Shown here in pieces: positions 36,459 through 47,024 of a DNA stretch of 56,544 nucleotides. The notes below the pieces were generated by a model. It saw only the letters and a program-made list of their open reading frames with translations. It made no database searches and was not told the DNA's origin. A program made the position numbers and the translations under genes. The stretch is from IMG/VR virus record IMGVR_UViG_3300050132_000119, positions 1-56,544 of that record. One strand, written 5' to 3'. Position 1 is the first letter of the stretch. Every line of letters begins with the position of its first letter. Source of the DNA: a virus (lineage: Duplodnaviria > Caudoviricetes).

Positions 36459-37193
36459 TCAGATTTGCGTCACACCCGCAGCGCCCGTGCGAGTGGCATT
36501 GGGACCACAAGCAATACCCGGCACTGCAATCGTGAGCACCAGACGCTTGGTGCCGTCAGAGGCACCCGTCGAAGGGGTGAAACAGCCGCGAACGTCCGTG
36601 GTGGACGTAGTTGCCGTAGCCGTGGTGTCAGCCGCAACAAAGGTACCGGCATCATCAGCCAGAGCACCATTCCAGGCAGCATGAACAATATAACCAGCAT
36701 CCGTCACACGGATCGGCAGGCCGAACTTGTCATTGAAGCCGCAGCTAATGTTGGAGCCAGCAGTGGCGGAAGCTGCGATTCGGGTAACCGATTTGAATGC
36801 CTTGGTCGTAGCCACGGTACTTGAACTGGGGGCCGCGACAGCCGAGGACATAGGTTGACCATACTGGTCGTAACCATAGACGATGAAAGTGGCGGTATTG
36901 GCACCGACAGCAGTCACAGTCACGCAGCGCGGGGTATCTAGGACGTAGCGGTTAGCACCCGTGGCGTCTTGGACCAGGGTGACGCCGGTTCCGGCAGTCA
37001 GAGCCAGATCCACAGCGCCCGTGCTTGCAGCGGCGGCGCGTAGACCAGCGACTTGCAGGGTCAGGGGAACAACGTCATGGACATAGATTCGACCCAGAGG
37101 GCCGACACCCATGGGCATCAGGGAAGGATTGGTTGCGTCTGCGCTAGGCAGGACGGCTGTACCGAGATAGAGATCATCGGAAAAATGAGACAT
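36459..37193 (-). CDS. Capsid-associated structural protein
   Basis: FSDDLYLG...GVGPLGRIY; shares G.D..G...FK.VT.I module with 35763. Confidence 0.7.
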   Translation of the reverse strand: MSHFSDDLYLGTAVLPSADATNPSLMPMGVGPLGRIYVHDVVPLTLQVAGLRAAAASTGAVDLALTAGTGVTLVQDATGANRYVLDTPRCVTVTAVGANTATFIVYGYDQYGQPMSSAVAAPSSSTVATTKAFKSVTRIAASATAGSNISCGFNDKFGLPIRVTDAGYIVHAAWNGALADDAGTFVAADTTATATTSTTDVRGCFTPSTGASDGTKRLVLTIAVPGIACGPNATRTGAAGVTQI

Positions 37194-37222
37194 GGTGCTG
37201 CTCCTTGAAAAGTTTGCACGGT

Positions 37223-37909
37223 TTATGAACTACTCTTCTTCAAATACTCTATAGCGCTGAGTAAGGTCGCTATATTATCGCCGAAAAAACCAAGACCACG
37301 GTTGCAATTCGAACACAGGAGTCCTCTGACTTTCTTGCTATCGTGACAATGGTCCACTGCTAAACTGAAAGGTTTTCCATTACTTTGTATTGACCCTTCG
37401 TTACCTTTACATATCGCACAACTATGATCCTGACTATCTAAGATTCTCTCGTAATCGCCCATGGTTATCCCATAGTACCGTTTCATGTCAGCAGACTTCA
37501 CAGAGCGAATGTTATCCGCACGCCATTCCCTTTGATACTTAGCCGCCGATTCTCGATCCACCGGTGTCCCTTTAATCACTTGCCAACACATGTTCTGCTT
37601 GGAATAAGGACCAGTCTTACTGATTCTGACTAATCTTGCACCGGTTTGTCGTTCGATCACATCTTCAACGAATACCCAGAAATCATTCTTCCATTCATCG
37701 CATAAATCCTTCCAATGAAACCTTCGAAGTCCCGACCACGTTGAGTAAAGAGGATGTTTCTCCTTAGAACCCCAATCGGACGGTCTCTTAGTTATAGACG
37801 GATCGCCATATCTCTGCCATCTCTTGTAATGTCTAGCACAAAGATTCTGGGCTACAGATAGCTCACCACAACTCATAACGGAACAAGGGGAACCACTTGG
37901 TAATGACAT
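37223..37909 (-). mobile_element. Free-standing endonuclease VII-type homing endonuclease
   Basis: CAIC...LAVDHCH...VRGLLCSNCNRGLG; N-terminal CxxxxC..C..HY; AT-rich. Confidence 0.9.
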
Positions 37910-37979
37910 ATAGACTCCTTTGAAAAGTCCATCATATCATCATGGTTCCCCCTGTGTCCAGTTATTTACAAGGATGTGT

Positions 37980-38900
37980 CTAGGCACCCGGCGTTCCGAA
38001 CAGGCATCGGGGGTCCGTCCAGCCTTCGATATAACGCTCGGTTGCCTTATATTTCACGCTGTCACTTTCAAAATCTCCTTCCATGGACTTGGTCAGTTTC
38101 CGGCGAACAATCAACTTAGCACCTTCTGGGGCATCAGTGGAAACCCACCATGCCGTAGCCGAGGTCAGGCGCGACAGGACAGCTGGATCAGAGTCAACCG
38201 TATTACTGGTGGACTTGATAGGGTTGATGTCGTTGTTGGCCGTACCCGCACGCAGAACCGACTTCAACAGAACCTCGCCCTGGAACACGTTGTCAGGAGA
38301 GATAACCAGCTTCTTGCCCTGGAGACGAATCTTCTTTCCGTTATTGTCCGTAGCCTTGCGAACCTGAATCAGCATCTGTTCCAGCGACGTTTGCGACAGG
38401 GCCGCAGCGGTAGAAAGGACGTTGCTGAACGTGCCGCCGATGATCGGGTGCGATGCACTCGACAAGCAGATACCATCACCACCGAGGTAGGACGAGTTGA
38501 AAGCACGGTTCAGGACATTGGCGCAGCGCAGTTCCTTGGTTTCAATCAGAGACTGAGCCAGGTGCTTGCTGAACGTGGAGCCGATGCTGATATGGTCACC
38601 GTCTTCGACCAGAATCTTGGTCAGGGCGAAGGCCAAACCGAACACCTTGTAGGTGTAGCGCTTGTTGAACAGCACACCACCTTGTTGGTAGGTGACTGGC
38701 ATACCGTCAGGCAACTCAGGAGCAGCACCGAATCCATAACCCACAGGCTCCTCAAAGTACGCACGCTCAATCGTAGCCTTGACTTCACGGAACACCTGCT
38801 TCCATTCGTCCTTACGCTGATCGTAGACGCCATCGAAGAACTGGTTCAGAATGGGTTCGACAATCGGACGGAAGTCCGTGGAGCGCATAGGCGCAGTCAT
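37980..38900 (-). CDS. Major capsid protein (core start MTAPMRS; frame open further upstream)
   Basis: 306 aa; GFGAAP...LAF.LT....EDG...L..S...TKE...ANVLN.AF...GDFE....YKA.ERY..GW.DPR. Confidence 0.85.
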   Translation of the reverse strand: MTAPMRSTDFRPIVEPILNQFFDGVYDQRKDEWKQVFREVKATIERAYFEEPVGYGFGAAPELPDGMPVTYQQGGVLFNKRYTYKVFGLAFALTKILVEDGDHISIGSTFSKHLAQSLIETKELRCANVLNRAFNSSYLGGDGICLSSASHPIIGGTFSNVLSTAAALSQTSLEQMLIQVRKATDNNGKKIRLQGKKLVISPDNVFQGEVLLKSVLRAGTANNDINPIKSTSNTVDSDPAVLSRLTSATAWWVSTDAPEGAKLIVRRKLTKSMEGDFESDSVKYKATERYIEGWTDPRCLFGTPGA

Positions 38901-39052
38901 ACCACCGAAAGCGAGCAACCCTGCGGTTTCCGAGCTTCCTGTAACATGGAACACCAGCAGCGCAAGGGCTGCGACGATGAGTGCTTGGACGGCAAGCGAC
39001 CAGTCGGTAAAACCAACCACGAATTGTTTGAAGTTTTCATGTTTGGTTCTCC

Positions 39053-39637
39053 TTAGACGGCAGTGGTGGGTGCGGAGTATTGGGTATTAGCCAAGGTCAC
39101 GCGCACAATGGGGTAGAGGTCGGTAGCAGCGTTGTCAGGAGCCAGGCCGAACCCGATGATGCGGAACTGCTTCTGGGAACCAGCGCCAGCCAGAGTCGTA
39201 TTCAGCGAACAAGCAGACAGACCCGTGGAGGTGGAACCAGCGGTGTAGATAATGTCAGCTTCGTCACCGATTGCTGTCATGGCGGTTGCCAGAGTCGCAC
39301 TCAGTTGACCAGACATCTGAATCTCGTAAACGATTTCCTTGTCCGTGTACACCCAGGCCGTGATGACCGAACCGGACATGACAGACTGAGACGCCGGGTA
39401 AAAGTTGGAATAGGTGGGCTTGCCGGTGGCATCCACATACTCACAACCTGCGAACGACCCCAGTAACGTGGCAGCAGCGGTACCCACAGTGACGGTACCG
39501 TTGGTGTTCAGAATCACCGGATCACCTTTGAAGATGGCGGTGTTGTAGGTGGGATTGATGGTGTACGCCTGGGCACGATCCGTACCAGACGGGTGGTATA
39601 CGGGGATAAGACCGTAGGGAGAAGCTGTTGCGCTCAT
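39053..39637 (-). CDS. Capsid decoration/cement-like protein
   Basis: PYGL.P...IFKGDPV...G.F.GCEY.D; AAGGAGG RBS; directly upstream of MCP. Confidence 0.7.
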   Translation of the reverse strand: MSATASPYGLIPVYHPSGTDRAQAYTINPTYNTAIFKGDPVILNTNGTVTVGTAAATLLGSFAGCEYVDATGKPTYSNFYPASQSVMSGSVITAWVYTDKEIVYEIQMSGQLSATLATAMTAIGDEADIIYTAGSTSTGLSACSLNTTLAGAGSQKQFRIIGFGLAPDNAATDLYPIVRVTLANTQYSAPTTAV

Positions 39638-39809
39638 GTAGAGCCTCCTTATGTAAATGATGAAGAATCACATTGACCTTTCGGTCCTTGCGGGTCAACA
39701 AATCAACACTGGGAGGCGCGAAGCTCTCAACCTTGCAATTTTCAGACTCGGGAGGGAATACCTAAATAATACTTGACAGCAATGATTCAAGTATTCCCTG
39801 CCTAACACA

Positions 39810-39837
39810 ATTATAGGGTATTTCCGCACCCTGTCAA
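39810..39837 (-). promoter_or_regulatory. Consensus sigma70 promoter for capsid genes
   Basis: TTGACA-16 bp-TATAAT; AGGGT/ACCCT inverted repeat in the spacer. Confidence 0.8.
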
Positions 39838-39841
39838 ACAA

Positions 39842-40393
39842 TCAAGAAAAACTAGGCATCTTTCGGCGTTGGATTGCTGCTTCTCGCTCCATTGCATCCA
39901 CACCATCGTCACGATCATTGAGTCGCTGACCCTGGTCATTGAATTTACCCACAACGCCCTCTTCCTCTTCCAAGGGTTTCCTGTGATGATAGAAACCCAT
40001 AATCTTTTGGTAGCGTTCCTCAGCAATCTTGAACAATACCATTTCATTGCAGGTGACATGACCATCGTATCCCGCAAGGGATTGACCATTGGATGCATCG
40101 AACCCCGGCATCTCGGATTGTCGAACCGGGGTGTAACCCAGGCGCTGACGTTTCTGGATGCTGTCATACTGACTCGTTGTAGTCAGCCAAACGAGGTGAT
40201 AGCCTCGCAGCGCCGGGGGGTTTGGGAGTGCGGTTTGCGTGAACTCGGCCTCCATGAACTTTTCAAAGTCGTCATCCGAGGTGAGGCCAGAGGTTTCACG
40301 CTCAGTATCCTCTGCACCTCGGTCACCGCGAATATCCAGAGCCCCGCCGATTTTGGTGCGCTCATCCTCATTACTTGCTTGTCGTGTTGCCAT
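39842..40393 (-). CDS. Conserved head-region protein
   Basis: LP.PP...GYH..WL.T...R.RLGY.PV...NEM.LFK. Confidence 0.75.
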   Translation of the reverse strand: MATRQASNEDERTKIGGALDIRGDRGAEDTERETSGLTSDDDFEKFMEAEFTQTALPNPPALRGYHLVWLTTTSQYDSIQKRQRLGYTPVRQSEMPGFDASNGQSLAGYDGHVTCNEMVLFKIAEERYQKIMGFYHHRKPLEEEEGVVGKFNDQGQRLNDRDDGVDAMEREAAIQRRKMPSFS

Positions 40394-40794
40394 TATTTCT
40401 CTCCGTAGGTGTTGGTTGCATGAATATTGCTGCGGAGTTCATACCCCATCAGCGGCCAAATCTTCTGCACAGCGTTAGCACGAGCGATCTTGCGACCGAT
40501 CTCGGCATCGAAGTTCTCTGGACTGGCGCAGGCTGACTCACCCGTGACAGTGAATCCGTTGCGCAAGACCAGGACGCAGAACGTAAGCAGTCCAAAGGAC
40601 TCATGCACCGGAGCAAACCCAGCGTCAGGAGTTCCGCGTACGCCACGGACTCCATCTTCGGCTGTGAAGTATTGTTCGATAGCAATGTTCCCCTCGATGT
40701 CTCCCGGCATGATTCGCGGAGCGGTCAAGCCTTTGGCCTTGATCTCGGACTCAATTGCCGAATCGTCACTCCGTGGTGAAGAAATATTATTCAT
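40393..40794 (-). CDS. Gp49/gp66-family (Acb4-like) protein
   Basis: LTAPRI...LTFCVLVLRNGFTVTGESACASPENFDAEIGRKIA...IWPLMGYEL. Confidence 0.85.
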   Translation of the reverse strand: MNNISSPRSDDSAIESEIKAKGLTAPRIMPGDIEGNIAIEQYFTAEDGVRGVRGTPDAGFAPVHESFGLLTFCVLVLRNGFTVTGESACASPENFDAEIGRKIARANAVQKIWPLMGYELRSNIHATNTYGEK

Positions 40795-41720
40795 TATTTC
40801 ACTCCATTCTGTTTGTCGTAATCCCGATAACTCTTGATCATCTTCTGCCGTGCAGCAGCGTCATCCCACATCCCCGCAGACTTGATGACTGCGACACGCT
40901 CGGGGGACAGCTTGAAAACCGAACCCCCACCCGCCTGGGACTGCTGTGAACCACCCGGAACCGGGTTTCCCGGACGCTTGGGTGCGGGGGCAGCACCCTG
41001 AATCCGATGAGGCAGATACTTCTGAGCCCGTTTTTCAAGCTCCTGCCAGTACCCGTCAGTCGTGGCATCCCAGCCTTCTGCGGTCAAGGAGTTGTCCAGA
41101 GCCGTGAGCACCTTAGAGTCGGGATCTGCACTCGTAGGGCCACCGTACCAGGTGTTCTTACCCAGGAACTGCTGACTCTTGGTGACGAGTCGGGTATCCA
41201 GGGGCTTGGGGGCATTCATGGCCCGTGCAGCGTTATCCTTGAACGTCTTGAGTTCCTGAGCCCGAGTTCTGGCGGCAATCATGTACTCAGTGGCTTCCGC
41301 CAGAGTCTTGCCGTCATTGGCCGTAGCAGCAGTGGCGATGACACCCTTGAAGTGTTCAGCGGCCTGGTTCGCCTGATTTATGGCGGCATCGACCTGGGCG
41401 AGTTGGGAACCGGCGTTGACATCATTGATTGAACTGACCTGCTGTTGCAGAGTCCGGTTCTGGTCAGTGAGGGCTTGCAGGTTACGTTCCAGAGCTTCCA
41501 CTCGTTCGCGGTTACGCTGACCACGCGACTTGCGTTCGTTGCGACGGCGCGCCCGGATTTCTTCTTTGGCTTCATCGGTTTCCGCATCTTCAAGCTCCGA
41601 GTCAACCTTGGCAGTCTTCTCGTCTTCCTCACTTTCAAGGTTTTCTACAGGATCATCATCTTCGCCCCCATGGGCTAGTTTCAGTTCCTCGTCCTCAATA
41701 ATCTCGTTTTCAGTGCTCAT
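40794..41720 (-). CDS. Putative scaffolding protein
   Basis: Acidic N-terminus, coiled coil, N.WY, C-terminal helix. Confidence 0.65.
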   Translation of the reverse strand: MSTENEIIEDEELKLAHGGEDDDPVENLESEEDEKTAKVDSELEDAETDEAKEEIRARRRNERKSRGQRNRERVEALERNLQALTDQNRTLQQQVSSINDVNAGSQLAQVDAAINQANQAAEHFKGVIATAATANDGKTLAEATEYMIAARTRAQELKTFKDNAARAMNAPKPLDTRLVTKSQQFLGKNTWYGGPTSADPDSKVLTALDNSLTAEGWDATTDGYWQELEKRAQKYLPHRIQGAAPAPKRPGNPVPGGSQQSQAGGGSVFKLSPERVAVIKSAGMWDDAAARQKMIKSYRDYDKQNGVK

Positions 41721-42027
41721 ATTTTCCTCCGAACATCAGTTTCTCGGCCTGACCATAGGCCAGGTATCCCGCAATCTTGTTTTCAGCATCCTCTTGGGCA
41801 TACTTCTGTCCAAGGTTCAGATCGAACTTGGTGGGATCAGCACAGGAGGATTCACCAATCACAGTGAATCCATTGGTCAGGGTGACACAGCAGACCATGT
41901 GACTGGTGCCCCGGAATAGGTGAAACTCGAATCCCTTGATGGAATTCTGGATCTGTTTTTCCGTGATTGACAGACAGATAGGTTCCGGGGTTTCGGTGAA
42001 TTCATCGGTGACGAGTTTGATGCTCAT
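41710..42027 (-). CDS. Second Gp49/gp66-family (Acb4-like) protein
   Basis: VCCVTLTNGFTVIGESSCADPTKFDLNLGQKYA...I..YLAY. Confidence 0.8.
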   Translation of the reverse strand: MSIKLVTDEFTETPEPICLSITEKQIQNSIKGFEFHLFRGTSHMVCCVTLTNGFTVIGESSCADPTKFDLNLGQKYAQEDAENKIAGYLAYGQAEKLMFGGKYEH

Positions 42028-42470
42028 GTCAGATGACTCCGCACTTGAGTCACATCACCCGTGTAAGCGCCAATCAGATCAGCGTCACTCAGGATTGCCA
42101 GCATCACGGGTTCCAGACCATCTTTCAGGTCCACGGTCCAGCGGTCGCCACCCCATCGAGGGACTTTCACGTAGTCCCCGACTTTGGCCCAAACCCCCTC
42201 GGGCCACTCTTCACCCGTTGTACGCTTCTTGAAGGAAAGCGGACCCACTGAGATCAGTTTGGCGACTTGACCGTTGTAGGATTCCTCATCTTTCGTACCC
42301 GTGGACAAAATGATTCCGCTGGACGTTTTCGCCACGACCCTGCGGATCTGGACCACGACCCTATGCCCGAAGGGGGTGAATTCGGGGTCGATGTAAGGGA
42401 ACATCTCGTCGATGCTCTTGTCCGAAACATCGAGTCCGCGCCCGTGTGGGTTGATGACTTCGCCTGCCAT
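42024..42470 (-). CDS. GroES-like co-chaperonin
   Basis: PFGHRVVV...KTSSGIIL...VGP...KVGDYV...D.DLIG. Confidence 0.85.
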   Translation of the reverse strand: MAGEVINPHGRGLDVSDKSIDEMFPYIDPEFTPFGHRVVVQIRRVVAKTSSGIILSTGTKDEESYNGQVAKLISVGPLSFKKRTTGEEWPEGVWAKVGDYVKVPRWGGDRWTVDLKDGLEPVMLAILSDADLIGAYTGDVTQVRSHLT

Positions 42471-42646
42471 TAGATTGCTCCTTCCGTTGATGTTGAGATG
42501 CCTTGCTGAGCGTAAGCCCGCAAAGCGCGATTCAGTTTCTTGTATTGCCGAATACCCATGTACGCCACTTCCTTGCGGCGCTGTTGGCGTTCAGGGGTTG
42601 CAGTGTGTTGGTTGTGCCAAGCCGCAGATTTGGGTTTCTTGCTCAT
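42470..42646 (-). CDS. 58-aa basic protein
   Basis: MSKKPKS...RQQRRK; ATGA-coupled to the Tad2-like gene. Confidence 0.55.
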   Translation of the reverse strand: MSKKPKSAAWHNQHTATPERQQRRKEVAYMGIRQYKKLNRALRAYAQQGISTSTEGAI

Positions 42647-43119
42647 ACCAGTACCCAGTCTTCGGAGAGTACATCCGTCTGAGACGCAAGCCATGGGACA
42701 AACTTGCAGTCAGCGGTACGCATTCCGATCCACGGCAGAGTCAGCAATGAGTCATCATCCATTCCGGGTACATCTTCCGAAACTTGCCACTGCGCAGCCT
42801 GAATCAGGGACAACCACATCCCTTTACCGTTCCAACCAGCACGAGCAACCTTGTTACCCATCTTCAGGGATTCAATCGCAAGACCAAATGACATACCAGT
42901 CGTGGACCTGTACGCAGCATCAAACTGTTCCTTCGGACTCCAGCTAATATAACCGCTGTGGCGCGAGTCATTACCCTTACCGCCATCAGTATATTCAACC
43001 AGATAACCATCGTCCGAACCATCCTCATCGAGAGGCAGGGTCCAGTTTCGATAGTTGTTGTAGTCCAATCGGGTCATGGGCGTAGCCTCAACGACCTTTG
43101 TACCAATGTACCGTTTCAT
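42643..43119 (-). CDS. DUF2829/Tad2-like protein with extra N-terminal domain
   Basis: MSFGLAIESLK.G.KVAR.GWNGKGM...PWLASQTDVLSEDW; N-domain YIGTK...GYLVEY...SWSPKEQF. Confidence 0.85.
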   Translation of the reverse strand: MKRYIGTKVVEATPMTRLDYNNYRNWTLPLDEDGSDDGYLVEYTDGGKGNDSRHSGYISWSPKEQFDAAYRSTTGMSFGLAIESLKMGNKVARAGWNGKGMWLSLIQAAQWQVSEDVPGMDDDSLLTLPWIGMRTADCKFVPWLASQTDVLSEDWVLV

Positions 43120-43178
43120 CAAAAGTTCTCCTACAGAACCACCCCAATATGACCGTGGGGCACTCGGCATTGAACGAA

Positions 43179-43358
43179 CTACTCGTCCTTTTCCTGTCCA
43201 GACATTGCATTTTTCACAATATCGATTAAATACGCTAACTCCACATAACCGCCCAGGCGTTTCTGAAACGCAGCATAGTCTTGCGGAGGACTATCGAAAA
43301 CCTCAAGCGCCATTTGTGCACGGCGCTCAATAAGTTCCCGATATAACTTTTCTAGCAC
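43179..43358 (-). CDS. 59-aa helical protein
   Basis: GTG start, VLEKLYREL...PQDYAAFQKRLGGY; translated by hand. Confidence 0.6.
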   Translation of the reverse strand: MLEKLYRELIERRAQMALEVFDSPPQDYAAFQKRLGGYVELAYLIDIVKNAMSGQEKDE

Positions 43359-43552
43359 TTCCCACCCTTCTTGAACCCCGGAACCCCATTAGCCATTTTC
43401 GCCTTGGTCAGGGGATTCATGGGAACCGCGACTCGGGGGCGCATGGGTAGAGAGGGCATTGCAGCGGGGACCGCGCCACCATTGGCGAATCCAACCTTCT
43501 TACCCATGGCCATTTGCTTGTGTTGTCCGATTGCAGAATTCGAGAGAGCCAT
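43352..43552 (-). CDS. Small basic protein with two F.xGG motifs
   Basis: FANGGAV, FKKGGKC. Confidence 0.65.
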   Translation of the reverse strand: MALSNSAIGQHKQMAMGKKVGFANGGAVPAAMPSLPMRPRVAVPMNPLTKAKMANGVPGFKKGGKC

Positions 43553-43563
43553 TCAGATACTCC

Positions 43564-44544
43564 TTACAAAACCATTGCGAAAAGCAGCAATTCATCATTT
43601 TCCTGACGAATGCGGTTTTGGTACTGTTCCGCTACAGCGATGAAATCAACCTCTGCGGCAATGTGTTTCTTTGCCTGCGAAATCAAATTATAGGTGAATT
43701 CTCGTGCCGCGTCAGAATCTTTGATTCCCTGAGTCAGAATCTGTAAATCATTTTCTGCCTTAGCGACCAGATTCTCGATTGCCTCTTCTTGAGCAATCTC
43801 AGCAGCCTGGATTGCTTTCTTCCGGGCGGCAGCGGTCTTGAGTTTGATGATTCCCTGAGAATCGGGTAATTTGTCCTTTTTGGCAAAGGCTTCAGTGTAG
43901 TAATCAATCAACCATTGGCGAGAAGCACCCGATTTGCTGGCGCTGAGTGCTGCGGCAACAGTCATCAAACCCTGCTGGACTTCGATAGACTGACCCGTGA
44001 GCGCCACGGTTACATCTGCACCAGATACAGTCATCGAACCCTGACCCACGGGCACACTTTGTCCGGCCAGTCCGACTGTTATGGCGGGATTAACGGAACC
44101 TTGAGCCAATGCAATGGACTGACCCGTGAGGAATGCAGACAGGCTCGGGGTTACGACACCTTGGGCTGCGGTAGAAGATTGCCCGGTGACGGGTATCGAG
44201 ATGGCTGGGGATATGGTACCTTGTGCCAGTGCGACAGGTTGACCAGTGAGAGATACTGATACCGCTGGGACTACAGTACCTTGGGCGGCAGTAACCGATT
44301 GCCCGGTGACAGATACCGATGTGGATGGGCTCAGTGTACCCTGAGCCGTGATAACCGACTGACCGATGAGTGCAACGGTGACGTTCTGACTACCTACCGA
44401 CAGTGTACCTTGCGCAGCAGTAACACTCTGACCCGTCAGTGCGATGGTGATACTGGGGCTGACTGAGCCCTGTGCGGCAGTGGTACTCTGTCCCGTAAGA
44501 GTTATCCCACCACCACTCGCCCCCGCCAATAGACGCGAGATCAT
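43564..44544 (-). CDS. Repeat-containing fibre-like protein
   Basis: About 9 copies of ~19-aa LTGQS.TAAQG.V.P; helical C-terminus ending DELLLF. Confidence 0.75.
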   Translation of the reverse strand: MISRLLAGASGGGITLTGQSTTAAQGSVSPSITIALTGQSVTAAQGTLSVGSQNVTVALIGQSVITAQGTLSPSTSVSVTGQSVTAAQGTVVPAVSVSLTGQPVALAQGTISPAISIPVTGQSSTAAQGVVTPSLSAFLTGQSIALAQGSVNPAITVGLAGQSVPVGQGSMTVSGADVTVALTGQSIEVQQGLMTVAAALSASKSGASRQWLIDYYTEAFAKKDKLPDSQGIIKLKTAAARKKAIQAAEIAQEEAIENLVAKAENDLQILTQGIKDSDAAREFTYNLISQAKKHIAAEVDFIAVAEQYQNRIRQENDELLLFAMVL

Positions 44545-45257
44545 ACAAGCCTAGGGGCAAAGATTTGCCAGGGGTTGGCGTTGAACGCAGCGTGTTCTGC
44601 TGCTGTCAATACCCGATCCCAGATCACAGCCAGAGACTGTGATCCAGGGAAGTTGTGCGATGCCGTGTTCGGATCGCCATTCAGAGTTACGTCCGGTGAT
44701 GGGGTTGCGTCAAAAGACCCATTTCCCGCTCCCTGAATCCCAAGAGCTTTTCCGTTCATCCACGCAACACAAGATGATCCGAGGGTCCCTCCCGATGGTG
44801 GAGTTGATATCGAGGCTATATTCCATTCCCCATTCACCGCCCCGGTTGAGAACGTGGCAAACCCGGTTGCGCTATACCAGATAGTTGGGTAGTTAGTCCC
44901 GTTCGTAAAGCTGAAAATATGGTCAGTTGTGGTCCCACGCTCGATCAAAAAATACGGGGTGGACGAACCGATTGTTTGAAATACCGACCCATAAGTGGCT
45001 TCGGTAAATACGGCTGGAGCACCATTAGCAAACGTCAGTGCATTTACCGATCCACCAGCGGCGGTAGTAAAGGACGTTCCTTGTTTTCCTACCGTGGTGG
45101 ACACCGCCCCCGTGGGTGCTCCCCGCGCCTGGTTCACCAGATTGAACGGGTTACCCCCGATAGCGGCGAAGCTGAGCTTTCTAGTTAGAGGATTCGCCCA
45201 ATCAATCCCGGTAGCGAACTGCGGCTGGGAGGTCCATTTCTGTTTACCGAACAGCAT
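44541..45257 (-). CDS. LamG/concanavalin-like protein
   Basis: W......MNG...IWDRVLTAAE...NPWQIF. Confidence 0.65.
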   Translation of the reverse strand: MLFGKQKWTSQPQFATGIDWANPLTRKLSFAAIGGNPFNLVNQARGAPTGAVSTTVGKQGTSFTTAAGGSVNALTFANGAPAVFTEATYGSVFQTIGSSTPYFLIERGTTTDHIFSFTNGTNYPTIWYSATGFATFSTGAVNGEWNIASISTPPSGGTLGSSCVAWMNGKALGIQGAGNGSFDATPSPDVTLNGDPNTASHNFPGSQSLAVIWDRVLTAAEHAAFNANPWQIFAPRLV

Positions 45258-45706
45258 TATGCACTCGTAGCTAAGATTTCAGACGTATAGACCGCTCCGC
45301 TAGTCAGGGCTACGCCAAGGTCATTCTTCAGGATGACCTTGAAGGCGTAGGGACAGTAGCCTAGAGCCTGGGCGACCGAGAATGTACCGATTTCAGTCGT
45401 GCTGGCGCTGTTCATTGGGACCGTGCCAAGGAATCGCAGGTTCGGCTCATCGGTCGTTGTCGTGCCGGATGTGGGGCCGCTGCGGAAGCTCGTGCCGTCA
45501 AGTGACTCTTGAACGAAGACCACAACCTGTTTATTACCAGACGCGGTGTTTGTCGTAGCAGCATCCACCTCGACGATCACATCAAGTGGTTGATTCGTAT
45601 TGGCGGTGTACGCTGCCGATGCCACATAGGTGGCAGATGCAAGTGTTCCGAATCCGGTAACGGTCAAGGCATTGCGGGCACCGACGACTTGTTTTAAAAC
45701 CGTCAT
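45257..45706 (-). CDS. Beta-sandwich virion protein
   Basis: V.VQESLDG..F...LGTV...FKV...N. Confidence 0.65.
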   Translation of the reverse strand: MTVLKQVVGARNALTVTGFGTLASATYVASAAYTANTNQPLDVIVEVDAATTNTASGNKQVVVFVQESLDGTSFRSGPTSGTTTTDEPNLRFLGTVPMNSASTTEIGTFSVAQALGYCPYAFKVILKNDLGVALTSGAVYTSEILATSA

Positions 45707-46107
45707 GGTGCCCACCCTTCAAGTGCCTTTGACACACCCTGTGGCGAGACGGTATCAGGCACGACGCCCAGCGCCAGCAAAGCCCGCACAGCAGGCGCAA
45801 TCGTAGGGTTGGCCTCAGCAATAGCCGTAGCCTTGTCCCGAGTGGCTTGCATCCCAACGTCAAGCGTCCCCGCCTTGATAAGCTCCATCGTCCAATAGAC
45901 GCTACGATCGGCAGCACCCATGGCGACAAGGCCGTCAAGGAACGCTCCACCGGCATCACCGAGCGTAGCCAGGATGGTCCCGATTCCGATCATACGGGAT
46001 TGAATCTTCGTGCGCCCAACACTGAGCGCGGCAGCAATCGCACCGTCGTCCCGAGTCTCAGGCGTGAGGCCAGGGAAAGCGGCTCGGATTTCTTCGAGTA
46101 GCGTCAT
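45703..46107 (-). CDS. Hypothetical protein
   Basis: RDDGAIAAALSVGRT motif. Confidence 0.7.
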   Translation of the reverse strand: MTLLEEIRAAFPGLTPETRDDGAIAAALSVGRTKIQSRMIGIGTILATLGDAGGAFLDGLVAMGAADRSVYWTMELIKAGTLDVGMQATRDKATAIAEANPTIAPAVRALLALGVVPDTVSPQGVSKALEGWAP

Positions 46108-46110
46108 AGT

Positions 46111-46572
46111 TTACACCAACTGAATCAGAGCATTGCCCGTAGTATTAGCAGGCATCGTCAGCGTGAAAGTCCCGGCCACAATGGTCTGAGATCCAAACGT
46201 GGACACAGACACCGCATTCTTACCAGCAGCGGTCGCGTTGTACATCAAAATCGTGTCAAACGCAGTACCTGAGAATCCCGCACCCGTGGTCCAGGAGGCA
46301 CTCGGGGTAAAGATTGCCCCGGTACCACTGGCAGCAGGTGCCGTAGCCGTGGTAAACGCGATACCGCCTGCCGTATAACTGCCGCTGTTCGGCACCTCAC
46401 CCGTAGCCGAGTATGCCGTGGTAGCGGCATTCAGTGTGGCTGTTGCCAGATACAGGGCACCGTTAAAGGTATCCTTGGTAGTGGCAGCACGTACGACACT
46501 GGCACCGAAGGCGTGGATGCCATTCAGCAGGTCAGTTTTGAAACTGGTTGCAATACTTTGAGTGTTACTCAT
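46111..46572 (-). CDS. Structural protein
   Basis: SFK.DLL.G.H.F...ALY...TTAYS..GEV..YTAGG. Confidence 0.75.
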   Translation of the reverse strand: MSNTQSIATSFKTDLLNGIHAFGASVVRAATTKDTFNGALYLATATLNAATTAYSATGEVPNSGSYTAGGIAFTTATAPAASGTGAIFTPSASWTTGAGFSGTAFDTILMYNATAAGKNAVSVSTFGSQTIVAGTFTLTMPANTTGNALIQLV

Positions 46573-46581
46573 GACAATCTC

Positions 46582-46785
46582 CTAATTAAACGAACCCATC
46601 GTCTGCTCAAGGCTGAGACCTTGCTTCAGATGCACATGAGCCGAGCGGTGCACCAGTTCACCATTGAATCGATACTCGGTGGCTTCCGTGTACTCAACCT
46701 CGTTATCGGTAACCTGGACCTGTTTTTCTAGCAAAGAATCATCCATGGCACCGAGAACCCCATTGATGAGAACATCGATCAGCAT
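46582..46785 (-). CDS. Hypothetical protein
   Basis: EY..NGELVHRSAHV.LK. Confidence 0.7.
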   Translation of the reverse strand: MLIDVLINGVLGAMDDSLLEKQVQVTDNEVEYTEATEYRFNGELVHRSAHVHLKQGLSLEQTMGSFN

Positions 46786-46793
46786 GACAGTTC

Positions 46794-47024
46794 CTAGGCG
46801 TTGAACAATGCCCGAGCGTGTGCAATAATTGTCGCAAATTCAGCTTGCACACCGTCGTCTAACTTGGCTGCTTCAGCCTCAACCTCCTGCCACAATGACA
46901 GATGAGGCTGCACTGCAGCCAGGGCACTGGCACTCGCAGCAGCTTTTGCCACAACAGCGTCTAGTGCAGCCTGAGCATCGATTACTGCCTGAGCGTCTGC
47001 AGCGGATTGTTCGGTAAGTGTCAT
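46794..47024 (-). CDS. Small helical protein
   Basis: AGGAG RBS, coupled to the portal. Confidence 0.6.
   Translation of the reverse strand: MTLTEQSAADAQAVIDAQAALDAVVAKAAASASALAAVQPHLSLWQEVEAEAAKLDDGVQAEFATIIAHARALFNA

Follow-up and report, generated by a model that had tools for sequence, protein, structure and literature searches.

What are three genes from families of nucleotide-signal sponges doing among the head-assembly genes of a phage? The locus that raises this question lies in IMG/VR record IMGVR_UViG_3300050132_000119 (Duplodnaviria; Caudoviricetes), a virus record that consists of one complete contig of 56,544 bases and represents a whole phage genome; this entire stretch is referred to here as the window. 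Its plus strand carries replication genes (exonuclease, DNA polymerase and helicase) up to ~21 kb and its minus strand, from ~56 kb down to 21.5 kb, carries the terminase, portal, head and tail genes. Among the latter, a gene of the DUF2829 family (the Tad2 gene) and two genes of family PF13876 (Acb4-a and Acb4-b) alternate with genes for a GroES-like protein (Cpn10) and a putative scaffold (Table 1), an arrangement that an initial annotation had noticed from the letters alone and that the Pfam matches bear out.

The explanation that we consider probable is that three accessory sponge genes have been inserted at three junctions of a conserved head-assembly operon with the order portal, small genes, Cpn10, scaffold, 183-amino-acid (183-aa) gene, 194-aa gene and capsid, and that these junctions act as exchangeable cargo slots in the phage lineage. 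The Tad2 domain would most likely form a tetramer that sequesters ADP-ribose signals of the glycocyclic ADP-ribose (gcADPR) type made by Toll/interleukin-1 receptor (TIR) proteins, thereby blunting Thoeris defence, and both Acb4-family proteins would most likely form tetramers that sequester cyclic dinucleotides such as 3'3'-cyclic GMP-AMP (3'3'-cGAMP) and cyclic di-AMP (c-di-AMP), thereby blunting the cyclic-oligonucleotide-based antiphage signalling system (CBASS). Since they would be co-transcribed and translationally coupled with the head genes, the sponges may be made as the structural proteins, which are common triggers of defence, appear.

All three products exceed the Pfam cut-offs. 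The Tad2 protein matches PF11195 over residues 76-158 (E 1.1e-22, 80.8 bits against a cut-off of 25), and PF13876 is matched by Acb4-b (E 2.6e-16, 60.3 bits against 27) and by Acb4-a (E 1.9e-30, 105.6 bits against 27). Sequences of solved Tad2 chains in the PDB match the Tad2 domain at E values from 3e-14 to 3e-11. Both families have been shown experimentally to be sponges, and Chang et al. (2024; 10.1101/2024.12.30.630793) equate DUF2829/PF11195 with Tad2 and state that PF13876 is the Acb4 family, in agreement with the initial annotation. The genes are further members of known sponge families, in a location that is unusual but recurring.

The coupling of these genes to morphogenesis genes is tight. 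Starting at the Tad2 gene and ending at the 183-aa gene, successive distances are -4, -1, -4, -11, -1 and -1 nucleotides (nt), i.e. overlaps of 1-11 nt throughout. GGAG-type ribosome sites precede every gene of the block except a 58-aa open reading frame (ORF), the Tad2-protein ATG at 43119 being preceded by AGGAG.

Two named relatives and the best 80 related loci on viral contigs, out of at least 596, provided head modules for comparison. By capsid protein, the closest named relatives (72-73% identity) are the Caulobacter phages RLK, RW, GB2A and KcrB and the uncultured phage MW202545; a megablast search of positions 37000-45000 against phage records gave no match, so that the phage collection holds no near-identical DNA. 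In the related modules the junctions are normally closed. No gene separates Cpn10 from the scaffold in 64 of 65 modules, or the scaffold from the 183-aa gene in 67 of 68; the median gap is -15 nt in both cases, and the sole inserts occur in contig loci L011 and L010, respectively. These two loci are the two closest relatives (capsid identity 90%). L011 carries an Acb4 gene between Cpn10 and scaffold that is the counterpart of Acb4-b (54% identity), with matching 4-nt and 11-nt overlaps. L010 carries a gene of the Sequestin family (PF21825) ahead of Cpn10 and, after the scaffold, an Acb2/Tad1-hairpin gene (PF24729, E 9.2e-11) together with a 91-aa ORF. In L025, which is more distantly related, a plain Tad2 of 86 aa lies between the portal gene and Cpn10. 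When 131 non-core ORFs of the related head modules were scanned with Pfam, single hits were obtained for each of Tad2, Sequestin, Acb4, Acb2/Tad1, a laminin-G-like domain and a homing-endonuclease motif. PF21825 and PF24729 themselves found no match in the genome of the window; for PF21825 the blank is weak, as its control matched nowhere.

Because the junctions are normally closed in relatives and the closest two carry other sponge families in the slots, the three genes are, as judged from these comparisons, exchangeable counter-defence cargo and not parts of the head. The same gene kinds also occur elsewhere: in MW202545 an Acb4 gene adjoins a Tad2 gene with the same N-terminal domain as the one described here, in an early operon on the plus strand, and the two are likewise neighbours in phage N4. 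Genes of these kinds thus change places between early islands and the junctions of head operons, and in this sub-lineage all three junctions serve as cargo slots with variable content. The initial annotation had proposed an anti-defence island expressed at capsid-level amounts and had suggested a check of synteny; an anti-defence cargo site is supported by comparative genomics (junctions closed across the 65-68 modules save in the two nearest relatives, which carry other sponge families), and the amounts are discussed below.

Three sister genomes with ~90% identical capsids thus hold four Pfam sponge families (Tad2, Acb4, Sequestin and Acb2/Tad1) and the N-terminal domain of the Tad2 protein in the same slots, which amounts to a natural experiment, and the interest of the locus lies in this slot variability together with the wide distribution of that domain. 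Counter-defence genes can be mined from head-operon junctions and not just from early-gene islands, and therefore ORFs that share the slots become candidates. Two of these, L010:8257-8532 (91 aa) and L011:6569-6886 (~70-105 aa), have no Pfam match and are candidate counter-defence genes.

The third is the 58-aa ORF of the window, which overlaps the stop of the Tad2 gene by ATGA and the start of Cpn10 by 1 nt and lacks a clear ribosome-binding site. As homologues of the 66-aa and 59-aa genes are found directly upstream of Cpn10 or its cargo in L010 and L011, the ORF forms part of the block that was inserted between the conserved 59-aa gene and Cpn10. No relative was found in IMG/VR or, by a word-based search restricted to lengths of 31-102 aa, among 5.8 billion proteins, and the ORF does not align to the one that follows the Tad2 gene in MW202545. 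Its sole Atlas feature match scored 0.75, under the threshold of 0.9 for anything more than a lead. By these searches the ORF appears to be an orphan, and of its nomination as a counter-defence gene by association with Tad2 only its position inside the inserted block is left.

Table 1. Features of the head-operon block in the window.
Feature	Position	Strand	Basis
N-terminal domain + Tad2 gene, 158 aa	42643..43119	minus	PF11195 and solved Tad2 chains
73-aa N-terminal domain	42901..43119	minus	homologous to RyR Tad N-terminal domain
Tad2 domain, short-insertion type	42646..42900	minus	pocket residues aligned with HgmTad2
Basic orphan ORF, 58 aa	42470..42646	minus	in block between conserved 59-aa gene and Cpn10
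Cpn10/GroES-like core gene	42024..42470	minus	PF00166; homologues in 65 related loci
Acb4-b, divergent Acb4-family gene, 105 aa	41710..42027	minus	PF13876; between Cpn10 and scaffold
Putative scaffold, core gene	40794..41720	minus	homologues in 68 related loci
Acb4-a, typical proteobacterial-phage Acb4-family gene, 133 aa	40393..40794	minus	PF13876; between scaffold and 183-aa gene
Conserved 183-aa head-module core gene	39842..40393	minus	homologues in 75 related loci
Sigma-70 consensus promoter-like site TTGACA-16-TATAAT	39810..39837	minus	12/12 matches
Two small conserved head-module genes, 66 aa and 59 aa	43179..43552	minus	bound Tad2 insertion upstream

Binding pockets of the Tad2 and Acb4 domains

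Binding of gcADPR by HgmTad2 is lost with the substitutions W21A/N22A and S90A/T92A/D93A (Li et al., 10.1101/2023.11.15.567273). The corresponding residues of the Tad2 protein are W96, N97, S146, T148 and D149, so that all five residues of the gcADPR pocket are kept. The insertion that forms the dinucleotide-binding site in HgmTad2 could not be aligned: ~14 unaligned residues stand against ~32, N85 of HgmTad2 stands opposite a gap and F70 opposite T127. Because the long insertion is optional in Tad2, only some members having it, its absence is not evidence against membership of the family. With its pocket residues kept, its insertion short and the contact residues of the latter not conserved, the domain is expected to be a TIR-signal sponge that lacks a dinucleotide site. 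A preference for gcADPR over histidine-ADP-ribose (His-ADPR) is suggested solely by the SQTD motif, which is common to SPO1 Tad2 and HgmTad2 and is not found in ModTad2.

The initial annotation had described the two PF13876 proteins as paralogs that share a motif. The motif is there (BLASTP, 22 of 46 core residues identical, E 2e-14), but over their whole aligned length the proteins are only 28% identical and hence not recent duplicates, and Acb4-a is nearer to N4 Acb4 (40% identity) than to Acb4-b. Separate acquisition would thus be more likely than duplication. Homologues of Acb4-a in phages of Pseudomonas, Curvibacter and Ralstonia show identities of up to 76%; for Acb4-b the phage collection offers nothing above ~52%. 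The nearest homologue of Acb4-a among phages (BK061477.1 from Pseudomonas phage vB_PaeS-D14C, 75.7%) is labelled 'Anti-CRISPR protein', probably an annotation by association.

SPO1 Acb4 (PDB code 9e4w) is the sole PDB sequence match of both Acb4 genes (E 0.0036 and 0.028). A monomer model of Acb4-b, of low confidence (pLDDT, for predicted local distance difference test, 57), comprises strands 21-28, 43-50 and 55-61 and a helix at 70-99, to be compared with the three helix-flanked strands of SPO1 Acb4; a Foldseek search with this model returned chains of 9e4w in all of its top 10 rows (E 1.5e-3, template-modelling scores 0.54/0.61), the next entry having an E value of 0.2. Nine contact positions of the SPO1 Acb4 pocket could be mapped, among which F48, F62 and I66 (or L) are kept in both proteins and T70 is among those replaced; at the same nine positions Acb4-b has six residues in common with N4 Acb4 and Acb4-a has four. 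SPO1 Acb4 is a tetrameric 3'3'-cGAMP sponge, all eight Acb4 homologues tested bound 3'3'-cGAMP and those from phages of Gram-negative hosts bound 3'3'-c-di-AMP (3'3'-cAA) as well (Chang et al., 2024); for the binding of c-di-AMP by N4 Acb4, a value of 111 nM appears in a later preprint.

Several points weigh against our explanation as a whole. Because several SPO1 Acb4 contacts differ in both genes (E49 is replaced by T, Y57 by A and K81 by P or G), their ligand is not readable from the sequence, and the low confidence of the Acb4-b monomer model has to be set beside its structural match. The best-scoring solved relatives of the Tad2 domain include ModTad2, listed in a review as binding His-ADPR and cyclic UMP and CMP (cUMP/cCMP), so that overall similarity does not settle which signal this domain binds. 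What the sequences show is the family membership, the conservation of the gcADPR-pocket residues, the inserted state of the genes, the variability of the slots and the coupling of the genes; ligand identity, the oligomeric state of the Tad2 and Acb4 proteins, the timing of their expression and their effect on defence are things that we infer, and for timing the consensus promoter scan described below cannot exclude promoters inside upstream genes.

The N-terminal domain of the Tad2 protein

The initial annotation overlooked a domain of 73 residues that precedes the Tad2 domain in the same protein. Residues 1-73 match no Pfam family and no PDB sequence at E<=10, yet an exhaustive search gave 1521 cluster representatives at E<=1e-3, with alignments that mostly begin at residue 1 (150 representatives). 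Among the best 150 of the 1521, the fusion partners are Tad2 (51), Sequestin (40), Acb4 (14), the Acb2/Tad1 hairpin (2) and WDGH (1). In our own, cruder classification of the same 150 there are triple fusions, 44 proteins with unassigned partners and three in which the domain stands alone. These 44 proteins contain a further region of at least 25 residues that matches none of the four sponge-family profiles used, and they form a pool in which further sponge-like domains might turn up. A word-based search found 496 relatives, and among the 120 listed the domain is accompanied by Tad2 alone in 106, by Sequestin alone in 11, by Acb4 in one, by Tad2 and Sequestin in one and by no domain in one. 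It is carried by 126 phage records, N4 included. In 28 two-domain representatives and the window, a set picked by similarity in the N-terminal domain, this domain exceeds the Tad2 domain in conservation: its median identity is 59%, that of the Tad2 domain 37%, and it has the higher value in 399 of 406 pairs. The locus thereby draws attention to a module that counts 1521 cluster representatives, has at least five sponge families among its partners, surpasses Tad2 in conservation and occurs in a model phage.

The AlphaFold2 model of the domain as a monomer is highly confident (pLDDT 96.8) and of mixed β/α type. Against solved structures, the best Foldseek row in the PDB has an E value of 3.2 and the best row of a wide VIA search has a Z score of 3.7 (DUF1653), with chromo/Tudor-like rows near Z 3; the absence of better matches does not show a new fold. 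The possibility that the domain is a Sequestin (PF21825) was set aside, as it matches no Pfam family at E<=10 and its model is mixed β/α, in contrast to the helical structure reported for Sequestin (Tal et al., 2025; 10.1101/2025.07.12.664507). A two-copy model gave an ipSAE (interaction prediction score from aligned errors) of 0.70, a mark reached by 20 of 30 solved homodimers and one of 23 solved single chains, compared with 0.00 for the best of three controls. Three dimer runs agree in at least 98% of contacts, with a partner pLDDT of at least 89 and with residues 1-13 swapped between the copies.

This swap has a crystallographic counterpart. Over residues 4-64 of Pectobacterium phage CB1 gp68 (RyR Tad), the domain is 37% identical (25/68, E 3e-8), and the N-terminal domain of RyR Tad forms a β1-strand-swapped dimer in the crystal (Fedorova et al., 2026; 10.64898/2026.06.04.730250). 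The predicted dimer may in part reflect likeness to this published homologue. Fedorova et al. call the domain a domain-swapped dimerisation element of unknown function and report that fragment 1-86 of RyR Tad alone had no apparent activity against type I Thoeris; in the literature found, that preprint alone mentions the domain, and a search on sponges in late or structural operons added nothing further. The only published test found covers this one type of defence. Nothing relevant was found in the literature on 'WDGH'. Dimerisation is the only supported role, and the domain is predicted to be at least a strand-swapped dimerisation module.

Could the domain be a ligand-binding sponge module itself, adding a third specificity and making the Tad2 gene a two-in-one sponge like the Acb4-Tad2 and Acb4-Sequestin fusions? 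We consider this possible but unlikely. The range of partners in the best 150 of 1521, to which the RyR Tad sponge domain has to be added, is what would be expected of such a module, as are the three stand-alone copies and the 44 unassigned partners in the local classification, the high conservation (in a set picked by similarity in this very domain) and the confident symmetric dimer. The same fusion logic led Tal et al. (2025) to Sequestin; their Pfam-based search could not have listed the present domain, which has no Pfam model. Yet the fragment was inactive in the published test, the domain has a net acidic charge, unlike most sponge pockets, and its fold matches no solved sponge, the best scores being those given above. 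Of 29 conserved positions, 19 are among the 41 predicted interface residues (of 73), which is no clear enrichment. The broad range of fusions and the strong conservation lend some probability to a role in ligand binding or in some other form of counter-defence. A bolder proposal, that the domain is a very widespread counter-defence module in its own right (a new sponge for an as yet unassayed signal, or a shield of sponges against systems that sense them) and that the head-operon junctions are a dedicated hot spot tying sponges to the structural proteins that trigger immunity, is in our judgement unlikely.

Expression of the block and its surroundings

Late co-expression of the sponges with the head genes is a reasonable inference from gene coupling and operon position. 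The initial annotation had gone further and assumed capsid-level amounts. A 204-nt untranslated gap that lies downstream of the three sponge genes and immediately precedes the 194-aa and capsid genes contains a perfect sigma-70 consensus site, which makes capsid-level output of the sponges doubtful; judged from this site, the capsid gene may be boosted separately. Among the RNA-library contigs the deepest one covers 39500-39791, with its end 19 nt downstream of the -10 hexamer. The gap itself (39640-39841, minus strand) is specific to the sub-lineage, the median at this place in 75 relatives being 21 nt.

Contigs identical to the window occur in four wetland metatranscriptome libraries and cover parts of the Tad2 gene, the 58-aa ORF, Cpn10 and Acb4-a, with one of them bridging the 5' junction of the 58-aa ORF. 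Such contigs carry no information on strand, ends, level or timing, uncovered parts have no meaning and DNA may be present, and they are weak evidence that the sponge block is transcribed. A contig from run X1, which derives from a relative ~94% alike, skips 40390-40792, exactly Acb4-a, with 23 letters on its short side; this hints at a variant that lacks Acb4-a.

In Mu-like Pseudomonas phages, the anti-CRISPR loci of the head operon have promoters of their own and are expressed early or continuously. If the sponge genes likewise had promoters of their own inside the head operon, they would be expressed early or continuously and their position would say nothing about timing. A 59-nt untranslated gap and a terminator-like hairpin (43330-43303) before the Tad2 gene, together with a promoter-like site with 10/12 matches at 43715..43687, leave some room for this. 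The consensus scan, on the other hand, finds no promoter-like site with at least 9/12 matches between 43170 and 39842 on the minus strand, and the stop/start overlaps leave no intergenic room downstream of the Tad2 start, which makes separate early expression a doubtful proposition. Still weaker is the notion that the three genes serve head assembly or some other phage-internal task, as small chaperones or RNA-binding factors whose resemblance to sponges is historical: their translational coupling to Cpn10, the scaffold and the 183-aa gene and the derivation of the Acb4 fold from double-stranded RNA-binding domains (Chang et al., 2024) would suit it, but it is rendered highly improbable by the closed junctions of nearly all related modules, the replacement by unrelated sponge families in sister genomes, the occurrence of the same gene kinds in early operons of MW202545 and N4 and the intact gcADPR pocket of the Tad2 domain.

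With the three genes taken as sponge cargo, the core genes around them call for brief comment. The Cpn10-like gene matches PF00166 (E 5.7e-07, 29.9 bits against a cut-off of 21.1) and the PHROG family of the co-chaperonin GroES. Neither the scaffold gene nor the 183-aa gene has a family match; the former is putatively assigned from its position and charged composition, and its homologues occupy the matching position in MW202545 and Caulobacter phage RLK.

Other irregularities were observed in the neighbourhood. A 228-aa HNH-type endonuclease gene (37223-37909, minus strand) lies between the capsid gene and the next structural gene; a counterpart next to the capsid was seen in a single related locus (L038), and the gene is probably a homing endonuclease insertion. 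Upstream of the start codon that relatives use, the capsid frame continues without a stop for 40 codons (38900-39020, minus strand), and a tblastn comparison with MW202545 extends similarity into this stretch, which overlaps the preceding gene in MW202545; it could be an alternative start or chance. Between the portal and the small conserved genes are ~3.5 kb of extra genes (43564-47024, minus strand) with no PHROG match, one of which encodes a 326-aa protein with repeated LTGQSVTAAQGT-like units. They have counterparts in L010 and L011, one with a laminin-G-like domain, and are absent from more distant relatives, where the gap from portal to Cpn10 has a median of 342 nt.

Comparison with known systems

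The Tad2 domain resembles SPO1 Tad2 and HgmTad2 (PDB codes 8sme and 8kbi; Yirmiya et al.; Li et al.) in keeping the GWNGK and SQTD motifs of the gcADPR pocket and shares a short insertion with SPO1 Tad2. It differs from both in the extra N-terminal domain that precedes it and from HgmTad2 in that the cyclic-dinucleotide site of the latter (R31, S47, F70 and N85) is not conserved. With SPO1 Acb4, the two Acb4-family proteins share the Pfam family, an alignable β-β-β-helix core and the conserved F48, F62 and I66 (or L). They differ from it in the replacement of E49, Y57, T70 and K81, a pattern that resembles Acb4 proteins of Gram-negative phages such as N4, which bind c-di-AMP and cGAMP, and Acb4-a differs further in a 70-aa N-terminal extension. 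RyR Tad (vB_PatP_CB1 gp68) has a homologous N-terminal domain whose strand swap in the crystal matches the dimer model; its partner domain, in contrast, is RyR-like and not Tad2, and in gp68 a portion of the conserved DGG...GY loop is missing.

The fusions Acb4-Tad2, Sequestin-Tad2 and Sequestin-Acb4 described by Tal et al. (2025) are similar in providing a phage with several sponge domains against several signals, and there too fusion partners point to new sponge families, but in the present phage the Tad2 and Acb4 domains are in separate genes. The closest parallel in gene content is found in N4 (EF056009; Fedorova et al., 2026), where gp48 belongs to PF13876 and gp49 consists of the N-terminal domain, 52% identical to the one in the window, followed by PF11195, i.e. 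the same two gene kinds and the same two-domain architecture. Several sponges clustered in one place are likewise a feature of the anti-signalling hot spot of N4-like phages (Fedorova et al., 2026). In N4 and MW202545, however, the pair stands side by side at the end of the replication/early operon, whereas the phage described here distributes its genes, two Acb4 genes among them, over three head-operon junctions.

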